Assembly (NCBI GenBank): GCA_964016885.1
Contig: OZ024743.1
Location: 260,524,001-260,588,000, forward strand
Reading direction: 5' to 3'
Length of the DNA stretch: 64,000 nt
Origin: Eledone cirrhosa
Lineage: Eukaryota
In this document: positions 3,884 through 62,061 of the stretch, in pieces
How positions within the stretch are numbered: position 1 is the stretch's first letter
How the letters are laid out: every line of letters starts with the position of its first letter
Notes under the pieces: generated by a model
Told to the model about the DNA's origin: nothing
Databases searched by the model: none
The model's input: only the letters and a program-made list of their open reading frames with translations
Made by a program: the position numbers and the translations under genes

Positions 3884-4045
3884 GGGCGCCATGTTTTGCA
3901 GCACAAAGTTACGGCATTTTACGGTCTGAGTTCAAATCCCGCTGAGGTTAACTTTGCCTTTCATCCTTACGGGGTCGATAAAATAAAGTACCAGTAATGT
4001 ACTGGGATAATTGCTGGCCTTGTGCCAAAAGTAGAAACAATTATT
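3884..4045 (+). mobile_element. SINE family A, 5'-truncated, with 15-bp target-site duplication
   Basis: ATTATTAGAACTGAA at 3869-3883 and 4040-4054 flanks the element. Confidence 0.9.
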
Positions 4046-4901
4046 AGAACTGAACGAGAGCCTTCCACAACTCTTTAGTGATAGCTATCTGATTGTTAAG
4101 AAGGATATTATTTAACAAAGTGGAAAGGTTCACACATTTTTACGTATTGAAAGCCAAGAGGGAAGCAAGCTATTCAATTATAAATGACGCAAAATATGAA
4201 ATAACTTCAACCAGATATCGAAACATGGTCACCGGGATTCAATTCTACCAGGAAGCAACCTTTTGTTTTACTGTACTCTCTGTGGGTGGCAAAATATTTC
4301 AGTGAAATTCAATTTTCGCTGTGTATTAATGGCAAACAAGCGGAAATGAAGTGTAAGTTAACATGGTGCAATTGGCAACAATGAAAATAATTAAAAAAAA
4401 TAAAAGATAAACAAGTAAAAGAAAGTAAACAAAACAAATAGTGTGAAATGCTCTTGAAGGTTTGTGTATGATGCATAATTGCCAGTAATTTATTCATGCA
4501 ACACTATTAAATTTAAACATATGCGCTTGAGGAGACCACCATGGCAAATGGTATGCTTTTGCAAATGGAAGCTTTTTTTATAATCACAGAAACCAATGAG
4601 ACACTCGCGGCAGTGACTCTCTTGTTTCTCTTCCCCATCTCTCTATCTCTAAAGACAATGACTGGTTTTACCTCGTACTATCACCTCTTCTAAGCACCAT
4701 CATTACCATCGCCATCATTATTTTACTACAGTAACGCCATTGCCATCACAACTATGATCGTCTGTAATGTCTCACGTTCATCACTATCATCAGCACGACT
4801 ATCAACTTCTGTACTATCACAAGAGAATTATCATGTCAGTTAACACAACCACCTCTAAGACCGCAACCACTACAGAAATATCAACGTCTGTCTGCTTTAT
4901 G

Positions 4902-4932
<31 letters not shown>

Positions 4933-4996
4933 CTTCTTCTTCTTCTTCTTCTTCTTCTTCTTCTTCTTCTTCTTCTTCTTCTTCTTCTTCTTCTGT

Positions 4997-5050
<54 letters not shown>
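4902..5050. repeat. (CTT)n followed by (ACT)n microsatellites
   Basis: Read directly from the sequence. Confidence 0.97.
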
Positions 5051-5119
5051 CACTCTACTAAAATCTGCGGTTTTTCACTTTCACAACCAAAACGTACCAG
5101 CTAAACCAGCATTTTGCTC

Positions 5120-11100: not shown

Positions 11101-14100
11101 CAATAACACTGTCACCACTACCTCCAATAACACTGTCACCACTACCTTCAATAACACTGCCACCACTAACTCCAATAACACTGTCACCACTACCACCAAT
11201 AACTGTCACCACTACCTCCAATAACACTATCAACACTACCTCCAATAACACTGTCACCACTACCACCAATAACTGTCACCACTACCTCCAATAACACTGT
11301 CATCACTACCTCCAATAAGTCACCACTACCTCCAACAACAGTCACCACTACCTACAATAACACTGTCACCACTACCTCCAATAACACTGTCATCACTACC
11401 TCCAATAACACTGGCATCACTACCTCCAATAACACTGTCACCACTACCTCTAATAACACTGTCAACACTACCTCCAATAACAGTCACCACTACCTCCAAT
11501 AACAGTCACCACTACCTCCAACAACACTGTCATCACTACCACCAATAACTGTCACCACTACCTCCAATAACACTGTCACCACTACCTCCAGTAACAGTCA
11601 CCACTACCTCCAATAACACTGTCACTACTATCTCCAATAACACTGTCACCACTACCTCCAATAACACTGTCACCACTACCTCCAATAACACTGTCACCAC
11701 TACCTTCAATAACACTGCCACCACTAACTCCAATAACACTGTCACCACTACCTCCAATAACACTGTCATCACTACCACCAATAACTGTCACCACTACCTG
11801 CAATAACACTGTCATCACTACCTCCAATAACAGTCACCACTACCTCCAATAACACTGTCACCACTACCTCAAATAACAGTCACCACTACCACCAATAACA
11901 CTGTCACCACTACCTCCAATAACACTGTCACCACTACCTCCAATAACACTGTCACCACTACCTCCAATAACACTGTCACAACTACCTCCAATAACACTGT
12001 CATCACTACCACCAATAACAGTCACCACTACCTCCAATAACACTGTCACCACTACCTCCAATAACAGTCACCACTACCACCAATAACACTGTCACCACTA
12101 CCTCCAATAACACTGTCACCACTACCTCCAATAACACTGTCACCACTACCTCCAATAACACTGTCACCACTACCTCCAACAACACTGTCACCACTACCTC
12201 CAATAACACTGTCACCACTACCTCCATAACACTGTCAACACTACCTCAAATAACACAGTCACCACTACCTCCAATAATACTGTCACCACTACCTCCAATA
12301 ACACTGTCACCACTACCTCCAATAACACTGTCATCACTACCTACAATAACACTGTCACCACTACCTCCAATAACACTGTCAACACTACCTCCAATAACAC
12401 TGTCACCACTACCTCCAATAACACTGTCATCACTACCTCCAATAACAGTCACCACTACCTCCAATAACACTGTCACCACTACCTCCAACAACACTGTCAC
12501 CACTATCTCCAATAACACTGTCACCACTACCTCCATAACACTGTCAACACTACCTCAAATAACACAGTCACCACTACCTCCAATAATACTGTCACCACTA
12601 CCTCCAATAACACTGTCACCACTACCTCCAATAACACTGTCATCACTACCTACAATAACACTGTCACCACTACCTCCAATAACACTGTCAACACTACCTC
12701 CAATAACACTGTCACCACTACCTCCAATAACACTGTCATCACTACCTCCAATAACAGTCACCACTACCTCCAATAACACTGTCACCACTACCTCCAATAA
12801 CACTGTCACCACTATCTCCAATAACACTGTCACCACTACCTCCAATAACACTGTCATCACTACCTCCAATAACACTGTCATCACTACCTCCAATAACTGT
12901 CGTCACTACCTCCAATAACACTGTCAACACTACCTCCAATAACACTGTCAACACTACCTCCAATAACACTGTCATCACTACCTCCAATAACAGTCACCAC
13001 TACCTCCAATAACACTGTCAACACTACCTCCAATAACACTGTCAACACTACCTCCAATAACACTGTCATCACTACCTCCAATAACAGTCACCACTACCTC
13101 CAATAACACTGTCATCACTACCTCCAATAACACTGTCACCACTACCTCCAATAACACTGTCGTCACTACCTCCAATAACACTGCCACCACTACCTCCAAT
13201 AACACTGTCATCACTACCACCAATAACAGTCACCACTACCTCCAATAACACTGTCACCACTACCTCCAATAACACTGTCATCACTACCTCCAATAACACT
13301 GTCACCACTACCTCCAATAACACTGTCGTCACTACCTCCAATAACACTGTCACCACTACCTCCAATAACACTGTCACCACTACCTCCAATAACACTGTCA
13401 TCACTACCTCCAATAACAGTCACCACTACCTCCAATAACACTGTCATCACTACCTCCAATAACACTGTCACCACTACCTCCAATAACACTGTCGTCACTA
13501 CCTCCAATAACACTGTCACCACTACCTCCAATAACACTGTCGTCACTACCTCCAATAACACTGTCAACACTACCTCCAATAACACTGTCATCACCACCTC
13601 CAATAACACTGTCACCACTACCTCCAATAACACTGTCGTCACTACCTCCAATAACACTGTCAGCACTACCTCCAATAACACTGTCACCACTACCTCCAAT
13701 AACACTGCCATCACTACCTCCAATAACACTGTCACCACTACCTCCAATAACACTGTCACCACTACCTCCAATAACACTGTCACCACTACCTCCAATAACA
13801 CTGCCGTCACTACCTCCAATAACACTGCCATCACTACCTCCAATAACACTGTCACCACTACCTCCAATAACACTGTCGTCACTACCTCCAATAACACTGT
13901 CAACACTACCTCCAATAACACTGTCACCACTACCTCCAATAACACTGTCACCACTACCTCCAATAACACTGTCAACACTACCTCCAATAACACTGTCACC
14001 ACTACCTCCAATAACACTGTCACCACTACCTCCAATAACACTGTCACCACTACCTCCAATAACACTGTCATCACTACCTCCAATAACACTGTCACCACTA

Positions 14101-14416
14101 CCTCCAATAACACTGTCAACACTACCTCCAATAACACTGTCATCACTACCTCCAATAACACTGTCAACACTACCTCCAATAACACTGTCACCACTACCTC
14201 CAATAACACTGTCACCACTACCTCCAATAACACTGTCACCACTACCTCCAATAACACTGTCACCACTACCTCTAATAACACTGTCACCACTACCACCAAT
14301 AACTGTCACCACTACCTCAAATAACACTGTCGTCACTACCTCTAATAACACTGTCATCACTACCTCCAATAACACTGTCGTCACTACCTCCAATAACACT
14401 GTCAACACTACCTCCA
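5120..14416. repeat. ~9.3 kb minisatellite, unit CCAATAACACTGTCACCACTACCT (24 bp) with 22-bp variant CCAATAACAGTCACCACTACCT
   Basis: Continuous tandem array; source of the VVTVLLEV / GGSGDSVI pseudo-ORFs. Confidence 0.98.
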
Positions 14417-15119
14417 GTTCTATAACCACTTATTAGTAATTCCATCATCATTAGTACTATCATCATCATCATCATCATATTCTCTACCATCATAGTTCCC
14501 TTTATAATGGTGTTCAACTCACTACAATTATTTCACGACAACACTTCAACACCCTTCGATGATCACATGTGTTATACACTAAAACAGATCTATTTATCCC
14601 TCATGATGCTACTGGTATTGGTGCTGTTCGGCATCATCTTCCTTGTCATGGCTTTCACTCCCGTCGCCTTCGTCATTGTACCCATCACTGCCGGTGATAC
14701 CATTTCACAGTCTGCTACCCCCACACCCACATGTCTTTCATATTATCGCCCCCACCATCACCATCATCATCATCATCTTCTTCTTCTTCCCCGTCTCCGT
14801 CATCACTCTCCAACAAATCCCTTTCTATACAATAGTGAAATTGAAAACCTAATTAGAAATGATGAGCTTGGATGACCGATGTAGCTGTATGGAGGGGTCT
14901 GGTGACTGTTTGGTATTGTGGAGGATTGAGGTGGGAGAATGTAGAAGTTAATCGCGATGGTAATGAAGAATATAATGATGATGAAGAAGAAAATTACATC
15001 AGCAATACCAACAACTACCATCGCCACAATTCCAACGACCTTACACATATTTTACTCACATCAACTGAGGGGAGACCATCCACCAAATAAACTAACCACT
15101 TAAGTAACCAATCTCCTAC

Positions 15120-15121
<2 letters not shown>

Positions 15122-15205
<84 letters not shown>

Positions 15206-16849
15206 CTAGCTAATAGCTAAACCTACCAACCAACCAACCAGCCAGTCTACTAACATCTCCAACCAGTCTGCTATTTGTATACCTAGCAAACCTACCTACT
15301 AACCACCCAACTACATATACATCTGCGGACAACGAACCATTCTCTAGCCCTTTTCTATTATGTTCAACCTAACCAACCAGCTAGCCAGCCATGCCATCCT
15401 GCCAACCAAACGACCCAGCCTTGCCAGCTAACTAGCCAACCAGCCAAACCAGCCAACCATCCTCGTCAGCCAACCAAACCAACCAGCCACACTATCGAGC
15501 CAAACCAACCAGGCACAGCATCCAGCCAACTAACCATCCAACCAACAATCCAACCATCCAACCAGCCAACGAGTAAGCGTGTAAAATTCCCTAGCCAAAA
15601 GAGTCGGTGTCAAGCGGGTTGTAACAGTATTAACGCTATTGCTTAAGATTCCGACAGCAGACTCTGACAGCTAATCAATCGAGAGACTAGCTTGAGCTAC
15701 ACACGCTCATCTGGCCGCCGGCAATTCTCATTTAAAAGTATAGAAATATCTAGGGCCCCTCCTACTGTGTTTATTGAACTCATTGCGAATGAGTGAGAGA
15801 GTGAGAAATTCGGGGGTGAGACCGGTGAGATTGGTAGAATTTTAACAAAGTGGCTGTGCTAAGGCAACTTTACAAGGCTGTTTCTACATGGGCATGGTTC
15901 TACTGAGGTCATAGACGAAACACTGTGTTAATCAGTTTCAACTATCTTACGCCATTTCCCGCCGGCTGCAATCACATATGAATATGACACATCCTCTTTA
16001 TAAAAGGTGCTTAAATTAATCTCGTAAAAACACCATCATCTTCTTCTTCTTCTTCTTCTTCTTCTTCTTCTTCTTCTTCTTCTTCGTCTTCTTCTTCTTC
16101 TTCTTCTTCGTCTTCTTCGTCTTCTTCTTGTATAATATTATACATAAATACATATATTTTATTCTTCATAAAATAGTAGTAGTTGAACTGATAATAAAAA
16201 TAATAATAATTATTATTATTATCTATATTATTGATATTATTATTTCTTTAACTCTAGAATCAAATTCTTTCTTGTTTTTTTTCTATTTTTCTAGTTTTTT
16301 TTTACATTCGGAATCGTTCTGCTTATTTTGCAATTTTTGTTGTTTTTTTTTTTGTTTTGCTTTGTTTTTTGTTGTTATATTTTTCCGTTGGTGTTAATGT
16401 TGGTGATTCTGGTGTATTGGGTGGGCGGTGTGTTGGCGGTGTGTTGGTGGTGATGTGGTTCATGCTAGAGTGTTGGTTGGTAGGGGCGTTGTTATTATTT
16501 CCTTTTCAATTTTTCTTTTCTGCTTCTCTTCCTCTCAATGCCCCTCTCTCTCTCTCCCTCTCTCTCTCTCTCAATATCTTCATATTCTCCTTCACTACCT
16601 CCGTTTCCCATCCCCCTCTTTCTCCCTCTCTTATCCTCTCCTCACTCTCTCTCTATATATATATATGTATGTGTTTGTGTGTGTGTGTATATATTTGCTT
16701 ATATATATATATATATGTGTGTGTCTATGTTACCTCCCTCTCTCTCTATGTCACATATACCACATTCTATCACACGTTTTCTTTGTCATTTGCTCTTTCC
16801 CCTTCGTCCATACCAGCTTCAATATATATATATATATATACGTGTGTAT

Positions 16850-16886
<37 letters not shown>

Positions 16887-16903
16887 TGTGTGTGTGTGTG
16901 TGT

Positions 16904-16934
<31 letters not shown>

Positions 16935-17307
16935 AGTGTGTGTGTGTGTGTGTGTGAGTGTGTGAGTGTGTGTGTGTGTGTGTGTGAGTGTGTGTGTGTG
17001 TGTGAGTGTGTGAGTGTGTGTGTGTGTGTGTGTGAGTGTGTATGTGTGTGTGAGTGTGAGTGTGTGTGTGTGTGTGTGTATTTACTATTAACATTTCACT
17101 CACACGCAGTACCAATAAAATTAATATTGATAATAATGAGAATGTCAACCTGGTTAATGACAATACTGGTAATACTTGTCTGCTACTCTTGTTGTTGTTG
17201 TTGTGGGTGGTGGTGGTGGTGTTGTTGCTGTTGTTGTTGGTGGTGGTGGTGGTGGTGGTGGTACTGGTGGTGGTAGTGGTGGTGGTAGTGGTGGTGGTGG
17301 TGTTTTG

Positions 17308-17339
<32 letters not shown>

Positions 17340-17434
17340 GGTGGTGGTGGTGGTGGTGGTGGTGGTGTTGTTGTTGTTGTTGTTGGTGGTGGTGGTGTTG
17401 TTGGTGGTGGTAGTGGTGGTGGTGGTGGTGGTGA

Positions 17435-17465
<31 letters not shown>

Positions 17466-17541
17466 GGTGGTGGTAGTGGTGGTGGTGGTGGTGGTGTTGT
17501 TGTTGGTGGTGGTGGGGTGGTGTTGTTGGTGTTGTTGTTGG

Positions 17542-17572
<31 letters not shown>

Positions 17573-19211
17573 GGTGGTGGTGGTGGTGGTGGTGGTGGTG
17601 TTGTTGTTGTTGGTGGTGGTTGTGGTGGTGGTGTTGTTGTTGTTGGTGTTGTTCCTGTTGTTGTTGTTGTTGTTGGTGGTGTTGTTGTTGTTGTTGGTGT
17701 TGTTGGTGATGGTGGTGGTGTGAGGGGTGGTGACGGTGGTGGGGGATGGTGGTGGGGGATGGTGGTGGTGTGAGGGGTGGTGACGATGGTGCGAGATGGT
17801 GGTGATGGGGGTGTAGTAATGGTGGTGGTGATGATGGTAGTGGTGGCGGTGTTGGTGGTGGTGGTGGTAGTAGTGGTAGTTGTGGTGATGGTGGTGGTAG
17901 TGGTGGCGATGGAGGTGGAGGTAGTAGTGGAAGTTGTCGTCATGGTTGTGGTGGTGGTAGTAGTAGTAGTTGTGGTGGTCGTGGTGGTGGTGGTAGTGGT
18001 GGCGATATTGTGTGGAGGTAATAGTGGAAGTTGTGGTGATGGTTGTGGTGGTAGTGGTGGTAGTTATGGTGATGGTTGTGGTGGTGGTGGTAGTGGTGAT
18101 AGTTGTGGTGATGAAGGTGGTGGTGGTGGTAGTGGTGGTGATGGTTGTGGTGGAGGTAGTAGTGGTAGTTGTGGTGGTGGTTGTGGTGGTGGTAGTAGTG
18201 GTAGTTGTGGTGATAATTGTGGTGGTGGTGGTAGTAGTGGTAGTTGTGGTGATGGTTGTGGTGGTGGTAGTTGTGGTGATGGAGGTGGTGGTGGTGGTAG
18301 TGGTGGCGATGGTTGTGGTGGAGGTAGTAGTGGCAGTTGTGGTGATGGTGGGGTGGTGGTAGTGGTGGTAGTTGTGGTGATGGAGGTGGTGGTGGTGGTA
18401 GTGATAGTTGTGGTGATGGTTGAGGTGGTGGTGGTAGTGTTAGTGGTGGTGGTGGTTTGTGGTGGTGGCGGCGGCGATGGTGATGACAGTGCAGTGGTGT
18501 TAGAAACTACTGCTCATATAATTGTTTCTACTTTAGGCACAAGGCCAGCAAATTACCCAGTGAATTACTGGTACTTTATTTTATCGACCCCGTCAGGATG
18601 AAAGGCAAAGTTAACCTTGGCGGGATTTGAACTCAGAATGGCAAGGGCCGTAACTCTATGCGTCAAAGTATGGCGACCGACCCTCTACCGATACTGCCAA
18701 TCCAATAATGTTAACGGCATCAACAATATCAACAACCCACAGGCCCATAATGATGATGATAACGACGATGATGATGATGATGATGACGATGGTTATGATG
18801 ATGACGATAGCGACGACAACGTCGATGGTAATGGCAATGATGACGATAGCGACGATGGTAATGGCAATGACGACGTCGATGATGATGATGATGACGTCGA
18901 TGATGATGATGATGACGATAGCGACGATGGTAATGGCAATGACGACGTCGATGATGATGATGATGACGTCGATGATGATGATGATGATGACGATAGCGAC
19001 GATGGTAATGGCAATGACGACGATAGCGACGATGGTAATGGCAATGACGACGACGATGATGATGCTGGGAAAGAACTGTTGGTGATAGACTAAGGTCAGT
19101 TGTGATAATTATATTGGCTGATTATACAGATATTTATGACAGGAAATATTACTGTGTTGTTATATTTATAGTGGTGGTGGTGGTGGTGGTGGTGGGGAAA
19201 GGGTGGGGGTG

Positions 19212-19243
<32 letters not shown>

Positions 19244-19269
19244 GGTGGTTGTGGCGGGGAGGGGTGTTG

Positions 19270-19301
<32 letters not shown>

Positions 19302-19315
19302 GGTAGTGGTGGTGG

Positions 19316-19346
<31 letters not shown>

Positions 19347-19516
19347 TGTGGTGTTAGTGGTGGTGTTGGTGGTGTTGGTGGTTGTGGTGGCGGTGGTGCT
19401 CGTGTATATATTGTTATTGTAGTTGTTTCTGATGTTGCTGTTGTTTTTGTTATTGCTGGTGGTGGTGGTGGTGATGGTGCTCGTGTATATAATTTTGCTG
19501 TAGTTGTACTTGTTGG

Positions 19517-19552
<36 letters not shown>

Positions 19553-19650
19553 AGGCGTGGTGGTGGTGCTGGAGTATATATATCGTAATCTGTGGTAGTA
19601 ATGATGGTGTTTATATTGATCTTGTAGTAGTTGCTGTTTGTGATTGTAGT
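15122..19650. repeat. compound microsatellite/low-complexity tract: (TG)n, CCAA-rich, (CTT)n, (GGT/GTT)n, (GAT/GAC)n
   Basis: Read directly; produces the poly-V/C/W/D pseudo-ORFs. Confidence 0.93.
18520..18703 (-). mobile_element. SINE family A, young copy
   Basis: Closely matches the copies at 31436 and 43230. Confidence 0.9.
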
Positions 19651-19758
19651 GGTATATATATATATAACGAAGGAAATGTGGTAAGGAACCAGATGGACCA
19701 TAACGCACTAATACAAATGTTTGACCAATCCTTGTGACAATTACTATCTTCCCTAATA

Positions 19759-19874
19759 AGGAATTACCCCCTGAGAAGTTCGGCTATTTATTTACCAGAC
19801 TAAAAATTCTTATTTAGTCCAGAATTAGCCGTCGAAACGGCTTGAGCTCTGCTGTCGGGGTCATACTTGTTCCT
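19759..19874 (+). ncRNA. type I hammerhead ribozyme motif (C3/A8 variant core) in a small element between (TA)n tracts
   Basis: ACCCC-CTGAGAA-G(TT)CGGCTA...TAGCCG(T)C-GAAA-CGGC...GCT-GTC/GGGGT: helices I, II and III all pair; predicted cleavage after 19856. Confidence 0.75.
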
Positions 19875-19875
19875 A

Positions 19876-19909
<34 letters not shown>

Positions 19910-19991
19910 TTTGTGGTAGTGGTGATTTGGTGATGGTAGTGGCAGTGGTGGTGGTGGTGTATATATTATTGCTGGCGATGTTGTTGAGGTA

Positions 19992-20128
19992 ATAATTGCT
20001 TCTACTTTTGGCACAAGGCCAGCAATTATTCCAGTACATTACTGGTACTTTATTTTACCGATCCCGTATGGATGAAAGGCAAAGTTAACCTCGGCGGGAT
20101 TTGAACTCAGATCATAAAGGGCCGTAAC
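19992..20128 (-). mobile_element. SINE family A, 5'-truncated, ~17-bp TSD
   Basis: GTTGTTGAGGTAATAAT (19980-19996) versus GTTGTCGAGGTAATAAT (20129-20145). Confidence 0.88.
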
Positions 20129-28708: not shown

Positions 28709-28759
28709 AAAAACTCACTCACACACGCACACACATATATAAACATATTTTATTTTATA

Positions 28760-28865
28760 TAAAAATGACTTCTACGGGACTAGAATTGTTTCATTCGTAT
28801 GATATCATCATTACTGATGATTTCATATAAATGAAACAGTTCTAGTCCTGTAGAAGTCATTTTTA
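28760..28865. repeat. fold-back hairpin containing a hammerhead-like core
   Basis: ~52-bp arms; CTGATGA (28814-28820), GAAA (28833-28836) and GTC (28845-28847) in the right arm. Confidence 0.8.
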
Positions 28866-28940
28866 GATGAAATTTAAAAAAATGCCTATGCTCTAGTTAT
28901 GTATTGAGTACCTTTTATTTAACTGCGGTTACCCTTCGAC

Positions 28941-29002
<62 letters not shown>

Positions 29003-29039
29003 ATAAGTAAGTATGTTTTGAAACAGCGAGCAAGTTTTG

Positions 29040-29245
29040 AAATTAAAAAATAGAAGCTTTCACCGTATTCTTTTTACTAAAGAAATTTTAGCCTGATAGT
29101 AGGGTTTAGAACCCTCAGAGAAATCGAAAAAGATGAGTATTGACGTCAATATTCATCTTTTTCGATTTCTCTGAGGGTTCTAAACCCTACTATCAGGCTA
29201 AAATTTCTTTAGTAAAAAAAATACGGTGAAAGCTTCTATTTTCTA

Positions 29246-29250
<5 letters not shown>
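29040..29250. repeat. spacer-less palindrome with ~105-bp arms between (TA)n tracts
   Basis: Centred on GACGTC at ~29142-29147; the arms differ at only a few positions. Confidence 0.93.
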
Positions 29251-29321
<71 letters not shown>

Positions 29322-29322
29322 T

Positions 29323-29775
29323 AACAGAGCTCTGTCAGCTTTATCTCCCCTTGTTTGCTGAAAATTTAAAGTAAGTGAGACTGTCACTACTCTAAAACAA
29401 TAGCGTAAGGTCTTCGAAATACTTTTAATTAAGCATACAGTGTATTGCAAAATACACTATATATACATTCATATATATATAGCTATTTCAGTGCACCAAT
29501 TCTAATTTTCCATTTCTGCTTGACCGGCAACCGCTCTGTGTAATCAGTTCCTGATTATTACTAGAATTCTATAAGAATTAAACATTCATGATTTTCAGCA
29601 AACAGGTGGAGTACTTAGCTTTGATAAGTACCAAAAAGTACGAAACAGAGCTCTGTCAGCTTTATCTCCCCTTGTTTGCTTAAAATTTAAAGTAAGTGAG
29701 ACTGTCACTTCTCTAAAACAATAGCGTAAGGTCTTCGAAATGCTTTTAATTAAGCATACAGTGTATTGCAAAATA

Positions 29776-29780
<5 letters not shown>
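29323..29780 (+). mobile_element. small non-coding partial-tandem element (321-bp period), retrozyme/pseudo-LTR-like
   Basis: 29323-29460 is repeated at 29644-29781; the repeat begins at hammerhead helix III; flanked by (TA)n. Confidence 0.75.
29598..29679 (+). ncRNA. type I hammerhead ribozyme (U3-A8 covariant core)
   Basis: AGCT-TTGATAA-GTAC CAAAAA GTAC-GAA-ACAGAGCTCTGT-C/AGCT; distal helix I AGCAAACAGGTGGAG / CTCCCCTTGTTTGCT; predicted cleavage after 29657. Confidence 0.88.
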
Positions 29781-29818
<38 letters not shown>

Positions 29819-35344: not shown

Positions 35345-38300
35345 TTACAGACACATATTCAGAGAAGGCCCATTCATTCGGGCCATACTTGCTTCTCTTA
35401 CCCATCTTTCAACAAAATGCTGGGAAGAGAGCACTTCCCTCTCTACCCTGATTTTCCTTTTCAAATGAAATTTGAAAAAGTTAATCAGGGCATCACCGAA
35501 GAGGTAAGTGCTCGTCTTCAGCCCTTTCAAACGTGTCCACCATACTATCTCTTTCGCCATGGCCACCAGACAGATAAAAACTGCCTGCCCTTCCAGGCTA
35601 AAGGAAGGGGGCGGGGCAATCCTCACGATGGACTCAGCTGATAGCCGGATAGTTCCTACACGTGACAGCAGGTGTTCGACATAAACCCACAAGTCAGCAA
35701 TGCTCGGACACTGGACGAGTGCGTGCAGGACGGTTTCGTCGCCCTGCGCGCATCTCGGACATGCCCGGCTGACGGCACCTCCATGCCTGTAGAGTTTATC
35801 CCGAACTGGCAAAGCTCCTCGGTAGCACTGCCAGGCCAGGGATTTCTGGAAGTTGTCCATAGGCCCCGGCCCGAAAGTCCTTCCGAAGAGATTGGCTAGT
35901 TGATTTTCGTCGACGCCTAGAGTTTCTCCAAGTACGTCGTCGCTCTTCCCCTCCACTAATCCCCTATAGAACGCCAAGGTGGAGTTTCCACCGATCACAT
36001 TGCCCGATTGGTCGAGGGCTGTGAGCGCCTGAAGACATTCCAGTCTCCAAGCGCTCCCTCTCGGTCTTCGCTTGACCCAGGACTGCAGCTCCGTCAAGGA
36101 GACGAGCTGGGGAAAAACGTGTCTTGCAAACGGCGACCACACCTGATCACCGTCGAGGAAGAGGTGGAGATGTCGTAGCCTGAGCGCGTGTCTGCGCATC
36201 ATCAGCCACGGCATGCCCAGCCCTCCACGTAGCGGGTGTTGACAGCAGATGGACCGCCTGACCATCGGAGCGCGTCCCTTCCACAAGAAGCGAAAGAGCA
36301 AACGCTCCAGCGCAGTCAGGCGGGGCTTAGGACAAGGTACGACGGTCAGGCGGTAGTAGATGACGGATGCGATGTACGCATTCGCCACCTCCGCTCGACC
36401 TTTCAGGGATAGCTTCCTCTCCGCCCATTTCTGGGTGAGAGAAGCCACCCTGCTCGTCACCTCGTCCCAGTTTTTGTCCGTCTGGAGGTCTGGACCGAAC
36501 CAGACCCCTAGCAATTTAACCGGTCCGTCCGTCCAGCGCCCGACGAGGCTGTTGGACGGCATGGACCTGCCTCTCCAGGTGCCGAGCTGCAGGCCCACTG
36601 ACTTTTCCTGGTTGATCATTGCTCCTGTCACCGCTTCGTATTCTCTTAGTGTAGTGCCGATCGCCTCGATGTGTTTGGCGTTCGACACCACTACGGTGAC
36701 ATCGTCGGCATATGCTGACACGGATCTTCCGCATCCTAGTTCGCGCGGGACCCCCCTCAACGTCTCCAGTTTGTGCAGTAATGGCTCGAGAGTCAATACG
36801 TACAATAGGGACGAGAGGGGACATCCTTGGCGGACCGAGCGCATGATGTTGAACGGTTCCGAAAGGTGACCGTTCACTCTCACTACAGAGCAGATGTCGC
36901 TGTGCATGGCAGCGATCCAGCCTCTGAAGACGGGCCCAAAGCCAGCCGCCCTCAGGACTGCCGCTAGGTAACGATGGTCGACCCTATCGAAGGCTTTCGA
37001 CTGATCTAAATTGATCAAAGACCCACCCGTGCCAGGTTCCCAAGCTACCCTCTCTACGATGTATCGCATGAGGTGGAGGTTGTCGTGGATGGATCTGTCG
37101 GGAATGGCGCATGTCTGTGCCTCTCCCACCAGACCACCAACGACAAGCGCCAACCTCTTTGCTAGCACCTTGGCCAAAATCTTGAACTCTGTGTTTAGCA
37201 GAGTTATGGGCCTAAAATTATCTATGTTATCCCCCTTGTTCGGATCCTTTCTCAGCAGCGCCACCGCTCCTCGCCTCACAGAGCTGGGAATTCTCCCGGT
37301 CTGTTGCCAGTTGCAGTAGACGTCCGCCAAGAGGCCTCCGAACAAGTTTGGCATTTGTACGTAAAGTTCATAGGGCAGACCATCCAAACCAGGCGATTTA
37401 CCCCTTGTGCAACTAGTCATTGCATCCCGTACTTCAGCGGTTGTTATCGGCTTTTCGCAACACTCCGCCTCAGTGGCCGAAAGCCGCGGCAGTCCGTCGA
37501 GGTAGACACTAAAGTCCATCCCTCGATCCGGCCCGCCACTGCCCCCGAACAGTTGAGCGAAGTGTCGCTGAAAAGCTTCACACATTTGCCCGGGATCGAG
37601 TAGCATGCGCCCGTCGTGGTCCACCAAAGACCGGATCGCCTCCGCCACTCGGGCCCATTGAACGGCTTTCGTTCCCTCGTGTCTGAGAGCACGCACCCTA
37701 GCTCTGACAACGCAGCCTTCGTGCTTTGCATTGAAGAATTGGTCAAGGGCCAATTTCGCCGCAAGTACGTCGGTCGCGATGCCTTTGCTAAGCGCCTCAT
37801 CTAATTTTCTAACTAATTCTCCCTCTGCTCTATTTTTCTCTATTGCTAAAGTCTTACTAAACCTAATGGACTCTATTCTAATTGCTCTTTTCAGAGCAAA
37901 CCACCACTTGTTGTTGACGATGGCCCCCGTCAACGCCCGCTTAACTAGTTCGCTAATCCGGTCTCTGTAGGCCTTGCGCGCTGGTAAGGACGCGTTTAGC
38001 TTCCAGTAGCCGGGTCCTCGTCTATGAAGCCTATCTAAGTCAAGCACACAGATCACGAATTTGTGGTCCGTGTAGCTGACTATCTTGAATTGTGGACAGC
38101 CTATGCTAGACCTATCTATTTCCCTACAAAATACTCTATCTAGATATGATCTGGATGACCCTATGCGATTTGTCCAAGTCCACATTGGTACATTCGGGAA
38201 ATCCATTCGGTACCTGTCAGACAGTTCAAAACGTCTGAGCAGGTTGGTGAGACTCTTGCACCCTCCTTCCCTATCCACTAATCCCACACAATCCCAGCGT

Positions 38301-38743
38301 GCATCTAAGATCCCGTTCCAGTCGCCCACTAACACTAAAGAGCGGGACGTTCCAAGAAAGGTCTCCAGACGCCGGAAGAAATCAGGCCGCCCTGCTCCTG
38401 TCGGGGCATAGACGGCCACTAACCTGAAAGCTTGCCCGTCTCCGCTGGTCACGTCCAGCACCACCAACTTACCTTCTGGGTCCAGGAAGATAGCCCGTAT
38501 GGCAAGATCCAAACCTCTCCGAAAAAGCACAGCAACTCCACCCTCCGATCCCGGACGGCTGGGAGATGCGTACACATCGTAGCCGCCGAAGATCGGTGCG
38601 AAAGCCTGTGCTTCGGAGATTCTGGTCTCGCTGATGGCCACTACATCTATGTTTAGTGACCTGAGGTCGTTGAGCAGGTGGCCCTGCTTCCATGACGACC
38701 CCAAGCCACGCGCATTTATGCTGCCTAATCTGAGTGAGGTCAT
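35345..38743 (-). CDS. ORF2: APE endonuclease + reverse transcriptase + C-terminal zinc-binding region (1132 aa)
   Basis: SINARGL, SET, VYAP, GDWN, LDR and TDH (APE); KSPGLDGL, FRPITLLN, DQSKAFDRV, RQGCPLS and YADD (RT); CPRC..ETVLHALVQC. Confidence 0.95.
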   Translation of the reverse strand: MTSLRLGSINARGLGSSWKQGHLLNDLRSLNIDVVAISETRISEAQAFAPIFGGYDVYASPSRPGSEGGVAVLFRRGLDLAIRAIFLDPEGKLVVLDVTSGDGQAFRLVAVYAPTGAGRPDFFRRLETFLGTSRSLVLVGDWNGILDARWDCVGLVDREGGCKSLTNLLRRFELSDRYRMDFPNVPMWTWTNRIGSSRSYLDRVFCREIDRSSIGCPQFKIVSYTDHKFVICVLDLDRLHRRGPGYWKLNASLPARKAYRDRISELVKRALTGAIVNNKWWFALKRAIRIESIRFSKTLAIEKNRAEGELVRKLDEALSKGIATDVLAAKLALDQFFNAKHEGCVVRARVRALRHEGTKAVQWARVAEAIRSLVDHDGRMLLDPGQMCEAFQRHFAQLFGGSGGPDRGMDFSVYLDGLPRLSATEAECCEKPITTAEVRDAMTSCTRGKSPGLDGLPYELYVQMPNLFGGLLADVYCNWQQTGRIPSSVRRGAVALLRKDPNKGDNIDNFRPITLLNTEFKILAKVLAKRLALVVGGLVGEAQTCAIPDRSIHDNLHLMRYIVERVAWEPGTGGSLINLDQSKAFDRVDHRYLAAVLRAAGFGPVFRGWIAAMHSDICSVVRVNGHLSEPFNIMRSVRQGCPLSSLLYVLTLEPLLHKLETLRGVPRELGCGRSVSAYADDVTVVVSNAKHIEAIGTTLREYEAVTGAMINQEKSVGLQLGTWRGRSMPSNSLVGRWTDGPVKLLGVWFGPDLQTDKNWDEVTSRVASLTQKWAERKLSLKGRAEVANAYIASVIYYRLTVVPCPKPRLTALERLLFRFLWKGRAPMVRRSICCQHPLRGGLGMPWLMMRRHALRLRHLHLFLDGDQVWSPFARHVFPQLVSLTELQSWVKRRPRGSAWRLECLQALTALDQSGNVIGGNSTLAFYRGLVEGKSDDVLGETLGVDENQLANLFGRTFGPGPMDNFQKSLAWQCYRGALPVRDKLYRHGGAVSRACPRCAQGDETVLHALVQCPSIADLWVYVEHLLSRVGTIRLSAESIVRIAPPPSFSLEGQAVFICLVAMAKEIVWWTRLKGLKTSTYLFGDALINFFKFHLKRKIRVEREVLSSQHFVERWVREASMARMNGPSLNMCL

Positions 38744-38777
38744 GTTGAAAAGGAGTGGAAAAGATGGGAAAGACCAC

Positions 38778-40773
38778 TTACCTTACTTCTCGTAGGGGAA
38801 GGACGGTTTTTCCATCCTTTTCACTGCTTGTGGCCTCCTCAGGAAGGATGTCCTTATAAATCCTCCTGGAGAGTGCTTGTCGGAAGTCTCCGATGTCTTT
38901 GGGGAATTTTTGTTTTAGTGTCATGTACGTTTTCTGTGTGATGCGAGTGATTTGTATGTGTGGAGGTGGTGTGAATTTTGGGGTTGTTGTGTAGTCTTTT
39001 TCTGTGATGCTGGTGTTGTGTTGGATGTAGTGTAATAATTGCTTGTTGTTCAAATTTAATGCTGTGTAGTGAGTATCGTTTTGGTTGTTTTGTTTTGTTT
39101 GCGTTTGTTGTGGGTTTGATTCTGTTTCGCATTTTGGTGACTTTTGTGGTGTAGGTGATGGTGGTGTTGGGGTTAATGATGGTGATGGAGTTGATGTTTG
39201 GGTTGATGGGGTTGGTGATGCTGGTGTGGATAGTGGCATATCTGTCCTAACTTTTTTGTTTCTTAATTTATTTGTTTCCCTCTGTATTTTGTTTTTGGAG
39301 GGGGAAGGAAGAGAATTTTTTCTTTTTTGGTTTCTTTTTTTTTTCCGGATATCGTTTCCCACTCCTCGTCGTCACAATCTGTCTCCAGTTGTGATAGGCC
39401 GGGGAGTGGAAAATCGTCCACAGCCGTTAGTTTTGGTTGTGGCGTGGTGGATGGTGTAAGCGCTGGGGCTAGTTCTGAAGCGTTGGGTGGTGGTGGTGTT
39501 GGTTTTGCTGGTGGTGGTGGTGGTGGTGGTTTTGCTACTGTTGCTGGGGTTGTTGCTGTTATAGTTGCTTCTGTTGTTGCTGCTACAGTTGTTGCTGCCA
39601 TCTCTGCTACTGGTGGTGTTGATGGTTGTGTCACTGGGGTGGGTAGGAGAGGTGGCCTCAACCTTTTAGCCTGAGGGCAGAAAGCCCTTAGGTGGGTTCC
39701 TTCACCACAAACGACACACCTAGGTCTTCTGCCCTCGACAATTACCGTGAGGTGGCTGCCGTCAGTGAGGTCTATTACCTCTGGGATCTCCTCAATGCTT
39801 TTTTGGTCCGCTTGGATCAGGAGCTCCATCCCAGATCCGGACCAGTTTTCCTGCTTTTCTTTTGCTATTGCTATTATTTTCGTGTTGGCTTCGATGCCGG
39901 CGAGGACGGCCGCTATTAGCCAGGGAATTTCGATGGCCGGTTGAACGTGGGTCACCCTGATCTTTACGAGTCTCTGGCCACAATAGCTTGGGACGAGTGT
40001 GAAGTCGTCACTTTTTAATGGGGCCATGGAGTGTTCTCTAGCCTCCTCTGGTGTTTCAAAGAACACGTCCACGGTTCCATACTTTTGCCCACGTCTGATG
40101 TGGGTTTTTCTTGCCCACACATGTCCCAAAGCTTTTTGGATTTGGGACTCGGATGCCCGTTCCACTCGGCGCGATTTTACATTTATTGTTCTATACGACA
40201 CGGTGCATAGGCGCCGATGCTCCATTTTATTAGGTGGGGGGGTGAGGCTGACCCTGTACCCATATTTCTTTACCATTTGTTTGGCATTTTCTAAATCCTC
40301 CTGAGTTACCGTAAATGCTTCGAATTGTTTTGCTACTCTGGCGAAACTGAGGGTCGGTTTTATAATGTCATTGTTGTTGTTGTTGCTATCGTTATTTGTG
40401 TTAATATTAATTTTAGTTTCAGTTGTGGTGGTGGTGACGTCAGTCGTCTTTGGTGGGGAAGAGTCCATTTTGCTTGATTTCATTTCGACATCACGAGTTA
40501 ATTTATTTTTTTCTTCTTTTGTTTCTGTTGTCGCGGTGGTGGTGGGGGTGGGGGTTGTCGCGGTGGTGGTGGTGGTGGAGGCTTTAACACCTGCAGTCAT
40601 TGGTAATGGCGGGAAATGAATGTCTGCCTGAGACAAATTTAAAATATTGCTAGTGCTTTTATTTTTTTTTTTGTGTTGGCAAACGTAGTAACATTTACAA
40701 TGGTGGTGTCGGTGTCAGGTGTTAATTTGTGAGGAAAGCTTTCAGCTGCTTCGTGCAGAGGTGAATTAGCCAT
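38778..40773 (-). CDS. ORF1 (RRM-like region + CCHC zinc knuckle), reconstructed across two 1-nt poly-A frameshifts, ~665 aa
   Basis: ATG at 40773 (MANSPL..); adding one A to each run at 40662-40672 and 39335-39344 joins three track ORFs; KYGTVDVFF RNP1-like motif and CVVCGEGTHLRAFC; ends ~35 nt before the ORF2 ATG. Confidence 0.8.
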
Positions 40774-40980: not shown

Positions 40981-41025
<45 letters not shown>

Positions 41026-42730
41026 TTCTGTTCTACATGGATGACCTGAAACTATTTGCAAAAAATGATGAACAATTGCAAGGGCTATTATCCACTGTGG
41101 AGCAGTTCAGTGATGACATTAAAATGGAGTTTGGACTAGATAAATGCGCCAAAGCAACGTTCACCAGAGGAAAGCTGCTGAAGAGTTCAGACATTAATAT
41201 TGATCGGGGGAACGTGATAAGAGAACTTGATCAAGAAAAAACTTACAAATATCTAGGTGTTTGTGAAGGAGACGGAATCAAGCACTCGACAATGAGGGAA
41301 AGGATAAGGAAGGGATGTTACCGCAGAGTAAGAGCAATCTTAAGAACGGAATTGAATGCAAGGAATAGGATCGATGCCATAAACACGCTTGCCATACCAG
41401 TAGTAACCTACAGTTACAATGTCATCAACTGGTCAAGCACAGAGATCCGTAGGCTCGATACAAAAATTCGAAAATTCTTAACCATGCACAGAATGCATCA
41501 CCCTAAGGCAGATATAGATAGAATATATCTCCCTAGGAAAGAAGGAGGACGTGGGTTAATCCAGTTAGACATTGCGTTGAAAACTGCAACAATTGGATTA
41601 TCTACATGTCTAAGAGAATCACATGATTGGATGATCAAACTCGTTTTGAAACACGAAAGCATCAAAAGATCATATTCCATTACAAAAGATGCACAAAGAT
41701 ACAGTAATGGACTACAAATTTCAGAAGTCCCATTTACTGCTGAAATGGAAAACACAGAAAAAGCAAAGCAGGTAAAAGTAACTGCAAAGAAAGAACTGCT
41801 ACAGAAACTGGCTAAGAAATGGCAAGAAAAGCCTCGGTATGGAAAATACCCAGAGCGAGCTAACAATCCTGATGTTGACAAAACTTTAACCCATCAGTGG
41901 TTGGCATCCTCTGGACTGAAATCGGAGACTGAAGGACTGATTATATCAGCACAAGATCAGTGTCTGCCAACAAAAAATTACCAAGCCAACATAATAAAAA
42001 ATGGATGCAGCCCATTATGCCGTGTATGCAAAAAACAACCAGAGACCATTGACCATATAATTTCAATGTGCAGTCCTATAGCTCCAACCGAATACCTAAA
42101 CAGGCATGACAGAGCTGCACAATACATACATTGGATAATGTGTAAGCATTTTGATCTGCCCCATCAAAAGAATTGGTGGGAACATCAACCACCTCCCATA
42201 CTTGAAAAAGATCACATCTCAATCTTGTGGAACTTTAGCATCCAAACAGACCGAAAAATAGATGCAAATAGACCTGATATAATATTGAAGGACTTTAAAA
42301 AGAGGGTATGCGTGCTAATTGATATGTCTGTTCCAATAGACAAGAATGTATCTATAAAAACATTTGAAAAATTGAGCAAGTATAAGGACCTGGAGATAGA
42401 AATTGGAAAAATGTGGAAATTGAGAACTAAAACAATACCAGTGGTTGTAGGCGCTCTGGGAATGATACCTAAGGGGTCTAATGATTACTTATCGCAAATC
42501 CCAGGAAACCCGCGTATAGGAGAAATACAAAAGATAGTACTAATGGGAACTACCCATATACTAAGGAAGATTCTGTCAATATAAGTACATCACAAGTCTA
42601 AACACTAAAGATGCATGTGTGAGTATGTATGTTCTTTCTTGAACATGGCGGACCTTGTTGTCTCTTGAGGTCACTGGTTGTGACTTGGTGATAACTCGTA
42701 TGAACATAAAGCAAGATAAATGCAACTGTA
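41026..42730 (+). mobile_element. R4/Dong-type non-LTR retrotransposon, 5'-truncated, flanked by (TAA)n
   Basis: Begins just before YMDD; (AAT)n at 40981-41025 and ~42729-42749. Confidence 0.88.
41037..42584 (+). pseudogene. C-terminal half of R4/Dong ORF: RT C-terminus, CCHC, restriction-enzyme-like endonuclease (open frame but truncated)
   Basis: YMDDLKL, YKYLG, CRVC..ETIDHIISMC, RHD, RPDI, IDMSVP and KLSKYKDL. Confidence 0.88.
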
Positions 42731-58425: not shown

Positions 58426-58472
<47 letters not shown>

Positions 58473-58666
58473 CGTGGGAAAGTGAAAAATCGGAGAATAG
58501 ACCGTTAAAAAATGTTTATTTAAAATATCACCTACGTACGTTTCGCCCAGTTGGGCTTCTCAAGGGCATAAATAATCACAAGTGTTCCTTATATAGTTGG
58601 GAAAGAGTTTTGGGGGTTAAATCCACATCAAGATTCATTGCTCGCAAAAATATCTTGTTTGCCATT

Positions 58667-61404
58667 ATGTTGGAGAACCAACCGTTACCCATGTCTCTCA
58701 AGTGTATCCCCTTACCCAGCAGAAAAACCTACCTTAAACTGCTTATAGACGCTACTAATTCGTTTATACGGAGAGTCAGATGGAAGGCATACCACCTGGA
58801 TAAGAACACCCGTAACCTTCCTGAACCCAAAGAGAAGTATGGCTTCAAAACATACCGAAACCCACCGCACAACACCTTACTGGACTTATTTGAAGAGGAC
58901 CTGCTGAAAATGATCAAAAACGTTAAGCTCAGAAAGAAACACCAATGCAGCAATCCATTCTTAACGTCCCTTGATACATTAATAACTAAGATCAAGAATG
59001 ACCCGCACCTCTTCGTCACCTCCGACAAAACCAAAACGCTGTACAAGATGGACGCGAGTGAGTATAAAAAATTCATCTATAAGGAACTACACAAAGACTA
59101 CAAAAAGACACCCTCTAGTACCCTAAATGACATAAATAGAGTAGGGAAGGATATAGTCACCAGCTTAGAAATAGAAAAGTACACTAACCCGTACGTCCCT
59201 CTGACGCCTAAATTCTCTCTTAAGGATCACAAATATGACTTTAATGAAAGCCCCTCTATTAGACTTATATGCCCCTCTACATCAGATATAGGTAAGATTA
59301 GTAAAGTGATCCTTGACAGAGTACTACTCGAGCTTAATAGAAAGGCTAAGGTCTGCCTCTGGGGCAACACCGACAGGTCATAAATTGGTTCACCGAGTTG
59401 CCGGATAAAGCCACCCTGAAATTCATCCTGTTTGATATAGATAGCTACTACGCCTCTATCTCCGCCATACTCTTAAATAAGGCACTTATCTTAGCTAGAT
59501 CTAACACTAGCCTCACCAAAAAAGAAATAGACATAATTCTAGCGGCACGTAGAACCATTATCCAGTTTGAAGGCTCCCACTGGACCAGAACCAACCGTCC
59601 TGATAACTTCGATGTCACGGTGGGGTCCAGCGACTCAGCGCAAGCAACTGACCTGGTTGGGATATACCTCCTACATAAGCTTAGGGAAGAAATACCGGCC
59701 CTACAAGGAGGTGTATATAGGGACGACGCCCTGTTTACCGTTAGGAACCATAGCCCCCGTAGGATAGAGAACCTTAACAAACATATACACAGGTTCTTTA
59801 AGTCATACGGCCTATCCGTAACTATGGACCTCAACCACAGGGTTGTCAACTTCCTGGACGTGACCCTGGAGTTGAGTACGGGCTTATACAAGCCATACCA
59901 TAAGCCTGGAGAGTGCCTCTCTTATATTAATTATGCCTCCAACCACCCTAAGCAGACTCTCAACTCCATAGTCTATAGTATCTCACATAGAATCTCGAGG
60001 CTATCCGCCAATGAGGATATCTTCAACCAAGCGGCTGATTACTACAATAGGGCCCTGATAAGCGCCGGCTTTAACCGAGGAATTTCCTACATCCCTAACG
60101 CTAGCTCTAGAACCCCCCCCCCTCGTAAAACTAACGTTATAGTAAGCCATACATATAACCGATCACGCGGCGACCTCGTTAAAGTCGGATATAATAGAAT
60201 AGATAACCGCACCAAAGATCACGTCCCCGGCGACGGTGAATACTGTAGATTACTCAAACTATTCCCCTATTACAAAACCAACAAAGGCGACGGCCTACTA
60301 CCAACGCCTTCCAACCAACATCTTCGTGTACATAAACATGGAAGAGGTAGAAAGAGTGCACCCGAGCATAAAGTGAAAGGGGCACCGAACGGGCGACAGC
60401 GCATTAACACACATAAGAGCGATCACTTAGATGGAACCACCCGTAGCAAAAGTACAAGGACACGTAATCGCCACCGTAACGTCCTATGGTTCCCCCCCCC
60501 CCCCACCTACTCTCGAAGTGTGGCCTCCAACATACCCCGGATATTCTTCGAAGCCTTAGAGAAGAACTTCCCACCCAACCATAGGTATAGAAAAATTCTT
60601 AATAGGAACAATATAAAAATATCCTTCTCTACTACTCCTAACCTAGCAGACATCATAGGAACAACGAACCACAGTAAGATCACCAAGACACAGCACCTCG
60701 ACGCAGACGCACCTACACCTGACAATAACTGTATCGGCCTTAACAACTCCCTGACAGCATCCAATAGTGTTGGCAACGGCATCCGCAGACGCAACCTGAA
60801 TGACCGCGAAGTGACTGGGGAACATGCAGAACATGGCGTGCGGAATAACAATCGCACCATCCCGCGTGCTGTGGGTTGTAATTGTGCTAACGACAGCTGC
60901 GGTAGCGCAGCTAGCAACGTAGGCAGCAACAATGATAGCCTTATCGTGGGAAATAGACGGAACCGCGACAGAAATTGCAACTGCCGCGACAGAGGGCGTT
61001 GCCCCCTTAGAGGATACTGCTTGGCCGATAGGGTTATATATAGATGCACTATTACTAGCCACAATAGCGTTAAACATTATATAGGGGCCACCTCCGGCCC
61101 GTTCAAAATTAGGTTTCGAACACATCTCCACTCTTTCACAAATAGAAAACTAAGGCACTCCACCTCGCTCGCGGACTACATCACATCACTAAAGGACTTA
61201 AACATTAGCTTCTCCACGCACTGGGAGATTGTCGGCAGGGCTGCACCGTACAACTTCAAGAGGAAATGCGATCTTTGCCTCATGGAGCTCTACCACATCA
61301 TAACTGCACCCCACGAGCTCATCAACAGCAGAGCTGAAACAGCGATAAGTTGTACACATCGCTTAAAAATATCCTTCTTTAGATGGGTTAAGAATGAAGA
61401 GTGA
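58667..61404 (+). CDS. Penelope-like RT + GIY-YIG protein (~912 aa) with a single 1-nt frameshift at ~59373
   Basis: RRVRWKA, IRLICP, FDIDSYYASI, GSSDSAQ, VYRDD, NFLDV, CNCRDRGRCPLRGYCL, VIYRC..HYIGAT..RFRTH, CDLC and CTH; restoring GAC(C)AG gives WGNTDQVINWF. Confidence 0.85.
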
Positions 61405-61687
61405 AATAGTACACTGGATCTCCCTGCAACAAGTCTTAACACCCCCGCGGGCAGGCGCAGCAAAATAACACCCACAAAACAATCCTTGCATACCAGACCC
61501 AGCCTCAGACAAAAGGGAAAAAAAAAAAAAAAAATTATCCGGGATAGACTGCCCTAACACCGGCCAGAGTTACCTCCCTTGACCTGCTGCAAAATCAAAA
61601 CAAGATATTTTTGCGAGCAATGAATCTTGATGTGGATTTAACCCCCAAAACTCTTTCCGAACTATATAAGGAACACTTGTGATTATT

Positions 61688-61732
61688 TATGCCCTTGAGA
61701 AGCCCAACTGGGCGAAACGTACGTAGGTGATA
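61688..61732 (+). ncRNA. minimal hammerhead motif (U3-A8 variant) in the PLE pseudo-LTR; mirror copy on minus strand at ~58526-58570
   Basis: CC-TTGAGAA-GCCC AACT GGGC-GAA-ACGTACGT-A/GG; palindromic helix III. Confidence 0.8.
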
Positions 61733-62061
61733 TTTTAAATAAACATGTTTTAACGGTCTATTCTCCGATTTTTCACTTTCCCACGTGCTTACGCTCTGCT
61801 AACTCTCTAGCCCACTAAATATTAACACTTCGAATATTTAATACTGCCGGCACTAGTATCGAGCACCTTGGCATACGCTACTTGTCAAATAACTATATGT
61901 ATCACCTATCCCTCCTTTTTCTCTCTTTCTCGATACGTAAATACTATATATATATATATATATATATACATGTAAAGTTATATTTAAAATTGTTGGGTTA
62001 CAACTAGTAAATATTTATAACTGATATAAAAGCACTCGACAAATACTTGGAGTATATTTAC

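Follow-up and report, generated by a model that had tools for sequence, protein, structure and literature searches.

A putative non-LTR retrozyme of Eledone cirrhosa with PLE-like insertion ends

Between two (TA)n runs on contig OZ024743.1 of Eledone cirrhosa lie 1.45 copies of a 321-nt unit carrying a hammerhead ribozyme motif. Is this element an independent retrozyme or the solo pseudo-LTR (pLTR) of a PLE, and which enzyme copied it from which RNA? Who mobilises animal retrozymes, and from which template, has previously been inferred. Our analysis considered the copy in the window, i.e. the whole stretch of 64,000 nucleotides, together with its relatives in the 3.0 Gb genome. The window copy is probably a dispersed member of a non-LTR retrozyme family, copied by a PLE enzyme from a predicted RNA circle into a (TA)n target.

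Layout of the window copy

The element begins with the last 14 nt of one unit, continues through a full unit and breaks off about 125 nt into the next (Table 1). Unit positions start at q1 (29337), the first base past the cut site, and run to q321 (29657). A direct repeat (29323-29486 and 29644-29807) with 95% identity and a spacing of 321 sets the period, and its two copies differ at 3 positions ahead of the TA run. The exact end of the partial second unit is ambiguous because it merges with the TA run. A preliminary description of this DNA had proposed the core TTGATAA, a GTAC/GTAC helix II, a 12-nt palindromic helix III with a GUC site, a long helix I with an internal loop, and a 321-nt period between GTC sites at 29336 and 29657. 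All of these were found where it had placed them. It had also let the upstream repeat start exactly at helix III, which is right to within a single base, the start being one base earlier, at A14 (29323). The absence of an ORF was borne out as well, the longest ATG ORF fully inside the element being 31 aa.

Table 1. Features of the window copy and position of the PLE found in the same window
Feature	Positions	Strand	Basis
(TA)n microsatellite, left flank (target)	29251..29322	.	sequence, repeat comparison
Truncated 5' end of the insertion, with A14, the palindromic helix III and the upstream GUC site (C17 = 29336), all from the preceding unit	29323..29336	+	
321-nt monomer, cut site to cut site (q1-q321)	29337..29657	+	
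8-bp hairpin (q103-122) closed by a GCAA tetraloop, immediately 5' of the proximal start site	29439..29458	+	sequence
Internal TA-rich stretch (q122-145), 3' end class A, inferred proximal reverse-transcription start	29458..29481	+	
q170-173, 3' end class B, inferred distal start	29506..29509	+	
Complete type I hammerhead ribozyme motif with long helix I	29590..29684	+	Rfam, folding, covariation
Core U3-U4-G5-A6-U7-A8-A9, with a U3-A8 pair instead of C3-G8	29621..29627	+	
Helix II, 4 bp with 6-nt loop (GTAC 29628-31 / GTAC 29638-41)	29628..29641	+	
GAAA	29642-45	+	sequence
Palindromic helix III (palindrome 29645-29656) and downstream GUC site (C17 = 29657)	29645..29657	+	
Partial second unit (q1 to about q121-129), class A end	29658..29786	+	
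(TA)n microsatellite, right flank (target)	29779..29812	.	sequence
PLE assigned to the Hydra clade by motifs (RT and GIY-YIG in two frames), with inverted 5' arm and (TA)n flanks	58471..61945	+	

The motif combines the conserved core with three helices and is open at helix I, as in type I hammerheads. Its proximal helix I comprises 4 bp (29617-20 / 29658-61), which a 5x4 internal loop separates from a long distal stem; for canonical metazoan hammerheads a proximal helix I of 6 bp is given (PMC4209133). By its geometry, a contact between loop 1 and loop 2 is a possibility. Folding gives helix III as a 4-bp hairpin by itself and as a 12-bp helix if paired with the upstream copy. The Rfam model Hammerhead_HH9 matches 29603-29680 over its full length (E 0.0057), although the 25 bits are sub-threshold at a gathering score of 52. 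The hammerhead region folds with z = -5.1, none of 200 shuffles being equally good, and the predicted 321-nt monomer is strongly self-paired (z = -5.5). The Rfam match, the fold and the covariation within the family argue that the U3-A8 hammerhead does not reflect chance. The window copy contains one complete core, and two complete tandem hammerheads are present in other loci of the family; a 2026 preprint applies at least two complete hammerheads in tandem as its criterion of an active copy (10.64898/2026.07.22.740005).

As in retrozymes, the repeated unit is non-coding, falls within 150-450 bp, is arranged head-to-tail and carries one type I hammerhead. By size, organisation, ribozyme type and lack of an ORF, the window element is, as judged from its sequence, a metazoan non-LTR retrozyme. 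Rfam matches to miRNAs and snoRNAs nearby represent palindromes below the gathering scores and were rejected. A Pol III A-box motif is not in excess (7 matches as against 12 expected) and has 0 matches at the unit start.

Several further repeats occur in the window. A mirror-arm repeat at 29001-29251, located between TA runs, has 107-nt arms of 97% identity with about 37 extra nt on one arm; it is found in 5 other distinct loci and resembles a short twin insertion belonging to a different family. A second mirror-arm repeat (28740-28945), whose arms are unequal, recurs in about 17 other loci; its CTGATGA...GAAA motif is possibly a minimal hammerhead of the PLE type. An L1-like element on the minus strand (35345-40714) contains an intact frame of 1,145 aa that encodes endonuclease, RT and zf-RVT, and the GC-rich frames ahead of this main frame may be ORF1. 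Another non-LTR RT protein is represented on the plus strand (41025-42584) by its C-terminal part, which has a Cys/His motif and may end in a restriction-like endonuclease tail. From about 4000 to 20000 a long region of extreme GC skew (about -0.8, then +0.55) probably consists of simple or satellite repeats in two orientations.

The family, its core and the predicted ribozyme switch

The genome search yielded 2,624 candidates, of which 40 were scored, and the top full units are 93-98% identical. An exact 35-mer at q87-121 had 2,681 matches in the genome and an exact 43-nt core stretch 181. The U3-A8 core together with its helix II gave 1,360 exact matches, as against 1 for the canonical core with the same helix II. 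Reversed control patterns had 0 matches. Full units deviate by a median of 3.3% from the majority base, and this low divergence indicates that the family is young, as far as can be read from its sequences. Copies are dispersed across many chromosomes. Most loci hold one to two units, and 86 of the 113 loci selected for a full unit or a core contain more than one.

Arrays of 5 to 12 units were found in L119/L142 (G000:C3, about 202,685,800-202,690,200), L052 and L163, with 80-95% identity of their units to the window unit; in L119 a helix II variant with a two-sided change occurs in 9 cores. The long arrays are heterogeneous (pairwise distance 0.08-0.14), hence they are old or were extended at the DNA level. 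This heterogeneity would suit a satellite or a repeat mobilised at the DNA level, with the hammerhead as a passive relic. However, the copies lie on many chromosomes with strand-polar, fixed 3' ends and variable 5' ends, and the ribozyme has been kept by compensatory change over about 22% divergence, which leaves such an origin hardly any credibility.

The compensatory changes are best seen between two families. Among 30 loci picked on whole-unit similarity, 56 out of 58 cores carry U3-A8. A sister family, about 78% identical across the whole unit and mostly C3-G8, was traced via loose ends in assembled reads (65 exact matches, 25 loci fetched). All cores found comprise 187 U-A, 20 C-G, 2 C-A and 1 U-G, the U-A number being inflated by locus selection. 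In the sequences compared, the 3-8 covariation is real, with C3-G8 in the sister and U3-A8 in the main family. For 26 hand-picked sequences of both families, 8 of the 20 pairs have changed on both sides, including 4 out of 4 in helix II; none of 500 shuffles reached this covariation score, and slid controls gave 1-2 pairs. Since these sequences are related and largely represent one two-family split, the covariation reflects few independent events. Core sites vary less (1.2%, 7/596) than positions outside the ribozyme (2.2%, 250/11174). The sister loci L184-L208 have the canonical C3-G8 core, a shorter helix III and the same two 3' end classes as the main family; L190 combines a U3-A8 core with the sister-family background.

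Natural U3-A8 hammerheads have been reported, with in vitro activity cited (Perreault et al. 2011, PMC3088659), and about 1,300 U3-A8 cores were described in PLE-type minimal hammerheads of Schistosoma (Cervera and de la Pena 2014, PMC4209133), the only paper returned by a literature search for the U3-A8 wording. The variant itself is thus already published and less unusual than the preliminary description implied. The window unit shares the core covariation of these cases. In contrast to the minimal hammerheads of Schistosoma, its U3-A8 pair sits in a full-length hammerhead of a tandem unit, and a homologous C3-G8 sister family in the same genome distinguishes it from both published sets, as far as these describe them.

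The palindromic helix III would permit a switch. The following folding figures are guides, as nearest-neighbour energies ignore core and tertiary contacts. In an isolated or circular unit, helix III is taken up by pairing with the 5' strand of helix I and with the beginning of the core; for the isolated unit the catalytic fold lies 2.9 kcal/mol above the minimum and makes up 0.4% of the ensemble. The sister-family hammerheads are also predicted to fold off. For 29324-29790, in contrast, the minimum-energy fold is the catalytic one, with 51% of the ensemble: the two palindromes pair over 12 bp and the single core is positioned to cut 29336. After this first cut the fold required for the 29657 cut is 7.3 kcal/mol above the minimum. 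The window copy is thus predicted to cut first at 29336, not at 29657, with the second cut disfavoured. Processing at both GUC sites, as initially suggested, seems plausible: the upstream site lacks its own core, but the single core could serve 29336 via the 12-bp palindrome pairing. As the 29657 cut is predicted to be disfavoured, an assay of 29590-29690 alone may under-report activity.

Self-cleavage would accordingly depend on a second unit in these models, a dependence established for metazoan hammerheads (PMC4209133). The energies faintly hint that U3 might weaken the inhibitory pairing with helix III: a canonical 3-8 pair would stabilise the off fold by 2.7 kcal/mol here, yet the C3-G8 sisters fold off too. 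In Xenopus, 8 out of 9 predicted retrozyme dimers were reported without in vitro cleavage (preprint 10.64898/2026.07.22.740005).

Insertion ends and the relation to PLEs

In hammerhead sense, the 3' ends of the copies are fixed and internal to the unit. They fall into class A (q120-146, within the TA-like stretch) and class B (q164-175), two sites about 26 nt apart of which neither is the cut site. Three samples gave 157/184, 61/67 and 60/63 ends of class A or B, the last one having been picked only on q87-121. A (TA)n run comes after 63 of the 70 B ends and 55 of the 87 A ends, as against 2 of 27 other ends. The 5' ends are scattered. Both strands are present in 75 out of 113 loci, and in such twins one arm usually ends at A and the other at B: with both outer ends classed, A+B combinations account for 47/50 twins in a first and 21/22 in a second set (pooled 68/72, p = 2e-16 against 50%); further twins with at least one unclassed end number 21 and 5, respectively. 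The sister family has A+B in 6 of 6 twins. The (TA)n flanks hide any target-site duplications.

For PLE copies, inverted 5' copies, one-sided tails of 30-40 bp and (TA)n targets have been described (PMC8557442), and a PLE RT was found to start at two internal sites and to extend both strands (PMC11167929). The partial tandems, inverted 5'-truncated copies, one-sided tail and microsatellite target found here are those of a PLE-type insertion, and the stretch from A to B is the PLE-type tail. The end pattern of the retrozyme corresponds to the arrangement described for PLEs and matches the two internal start sites of the lizard PLE. With the Poseidon PLE of Anolis, PAc (Frangieh et al. 2024, PMC11167929), the unit shares two internal RT starts downstream of the hammerhead cut, an inter-site tail, extension of both target strands and AT-rich targets. 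PAc is autonomous and its ribozyme dispensable in vitro, whereas the window unit is non-coding. A further difference from PAc as described is that the start sites of the unit adjoin TA-like sequence; at site A the target could thus prime by base pairing. Hydra-clade PLEs (Craig et al. 2021, PMC8557442) likewise share (TA)n targets, an inverted 5' copy and a tail at one end.

A PLE helper for retrozymes was hypothesised by Cervera and de la Pena (2020, PMC7229834), whose main text presents no insertion-end analysis. In the literature searched (main texts; supplements may bear on this point) no insertion-end evidence was found for any retrozyme, and the insertion ends are the new information provided by this family.

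The same anatomy raises the question of whether the unit is just the pseudo-LTR of an unsampled autonomous PLE, its copies being 5'-truncated PLE insertions. The insertions are wholly PLE-like, and U3-A8 cores are known from PLE pLTRs (PMC4209133) and also from the Hydra-type PLE of this genome, where all 22 cores among those listed carry U3-A8. Furthermore, 24 out of 57 Xenopus retrozyme families were reported to match known elements, nearly all of them PLE ends (10.64898/2026.07.22.740005). However, none of 153 main-family and 25 sister loci (0/178, 95% upper bound about 1.7%) is joined to a homologous parent ORF, no two of their 5' flanks share a recurrent parent-type extension at the junction, and arms extending upstream of the ribozyme carry on within the unit itself and in no case reach the end of an ORF. 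A set of 61 further loci, overlapping the earlier ones in part, added no homologous parent, and in none of the inspected loci does the repeat flank an ORF with RT and GIY-YIG. These numbers refer to a few percent of all copies and to a search with one Hydra-type protein query in flanks of 1.5-2 kb, by which distant clades could be missed. On balance, a mere pseudo-LTR is very improbable. The head-to-tail 321-nt copies and the lack of a homologous parent agree with the initial proposal of an independent retrozyme, and the homologue search proposed with it led to an array of about 12 units, to no parental ORF and to one chimera with an unrelated PLE. The unit may still descend from an ancient pLTR, which would not change its present behaviour.

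The chimera (L041/L141, G000:C1, about 174,383,000-174,386,100) involves a PLE unrelated to the unit. Its first part comprises (TA)n and an inverted PLE arm ending at the distal end of the PLE; in its second part the PLE body leads into the middle of its own hammerhead, followed by q74-321, q1-145 and (TA)n. This arrangement could stem from a single event using both RNAs, or from a later insertion that deleted about 80 nt. Among 55 flanks no further convincing chimeric 5' flank with a PLE hammerhead was detected. Other PLE ORF fragments near retrozyme loci, L165 being one of the loci inspected for them, were rejected because they were in the wrong orientation, past the TA run or split off by unrelated sequence.

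The window contains a PLE of its own, 29 kb from the retrozyme and unlinked to it. Its ORF is split over two frames near 59350-59383 and, although Pfam did not recognise its ORFs, the motifs RWK, DKT and CxCx5C, among those named in PMC8557442, would place it in the Hydra clade. Its hammerhead, at about 61690-61740, has a U3-A8 core and a short helix I. The PLE family, a candidate helper, is young and high-copy (2,605 candidates, the best at 96-98%), and in 5 out of 5 loci, selected for the distal end, each of its own two ends is found on one arm. The two ends in the window (61786 and 61945) are 159 nt apart, far beyond the published tails of 30-40 nt. Past the TA runs, the retrozyme unit has no sequence similarity to this PLE or its pLTR; this and the end spacing of 159 instead of 26 nt count against it as the helper.

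Template and proposed life cycle

Cut-site read-through provides information on the template. As the 110 out of 113 loci that cross the cut site had been chosen for a core or full unit, they were set aside, and the q87-121 sample, which was not selected on the ribozyme, was used instead. From its 79 motif matches, 63 terminal arms were kept and 16 internal ones left out. Reverse transcription stopped before the cut site in 13 arms, at the cut site in 2 and past it in 48, corresponding to read-through in 48 of the 50 arms that reach it. The stop rate at the cut site is 0.006 per nt, compared to 0.003-0.006 elsewhere. A cut linear monomer would halt the RT at q1, and thus read-through argues against such a template. 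Variants are shared by 27% between tandem units of one locus and by 32% between opposite arms, as against 6% for random pairs between loci, a pattern indicating a single template molecule or a single source locus. The junction bases are as intact as their neighbours (C17 in 55/58, the next base in 57/58).

A circle accounts for read-through, variant sharing and a conserved ribozyme together. In the alternative of a linear template, an uncut multimer or RT jumps between cut monomers, the element would be the same PLE-dependent, non-autonomous one and the ribozyme would merely free its RNA from host transcripts. The existing arrays of 5 to 12 units are in line with this, and unprocessed RNA is the main substrate of PAc in vitro, for which its own ribozyme is dispensable (PMC11167929). 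Read-through and shared variants equally fit a multimer from one source locus, and DNA alone has no power to separate it from a circle. On the other hand, only 11 out of 113 loci have at least two units on one strand, yet 22 of the 63 terminal arms extend at least 150 nt upstream of the cut site. The intact junction bases also speak against a linear template, variant sharing disfavours jumps between different molecules, and multimers would tend to be cut, given the conserved ribozyme in each of their units. Overall, we consider a linear template rather unlikely.

For the circular template we tentatively propose, with somewhat less than an even chance of being right, that a PLE enzyme, possibly of the Hydra clade, performs twin priming at two fixed sites on one circle, with the palindromic helix III on in precursors and off in the circle. 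In transcripts longer than one unit neighbouring palindromes would pair and self-cleavage would occur after GUC. Ligation would then close the monomers into circles, where folding predicts the ribozyme to be off. The RT/GIY-YIG complex of the PLE would nick both strands of a (TA)n target, and priming at q122-145 and at q170-173 would generate two inverted arms differing by a tail of about 26 nt. Reverse transcription would continue past the ligated cut site and stop at variable points. The window copy would be a single class A arm in which synthesis, having passed the downstream cut site, completed a full turn and ended 14 nt later.

Metazoan non-LTR retrozymes as described (PMC7229834) share with this family the type I hammerhead, a low-GC, non-coding tandem unit of 170-400 nt, thousands of copies, absence of LTR features, coexisting PLEs and a highly self-paired monomer, the latter being predicted here. 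The window unit differs from them in its U3-A8 core and the 12-bp inter-unit helix III. Moreover, its circle is predicted to block the ribozyme by self-pairing, whereas most metazoan circles are described to leave it free. The view of retrozymes as non-autonomous PLE derivatives is shared by Li, Clavereau and Pollet in their 2026 preprint (10.64898/2026.07.22.740005), whose Xenopus retrozymes also form mostly monomers or short arrays with units near 320 nt. Their conclusion is based on co-occurrence and pLTR homology in Xenopus; ours is based on the insertion footprint and one chimera, with no homologous pLTR found.

Retrozymes, U3-A8 cores and PLE tails are each known, and this family adds a measurable link among them. 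The C3-G8 and U3-A8 sister families form a natural pair for measuring the effect of a core swap on the cleavage rate. With two start sites, one site per arm and cut-site read-through, the question of mobilisation can be put to the test using a 321-nt RNA together with a PLE protein of this genome. If the twin-priming reading is true, the unit would be a 321-nt minimal substrate for PLE twin priming, and the family would be a genomic record of a retrozyme life cycle that has so far merely been proposed.
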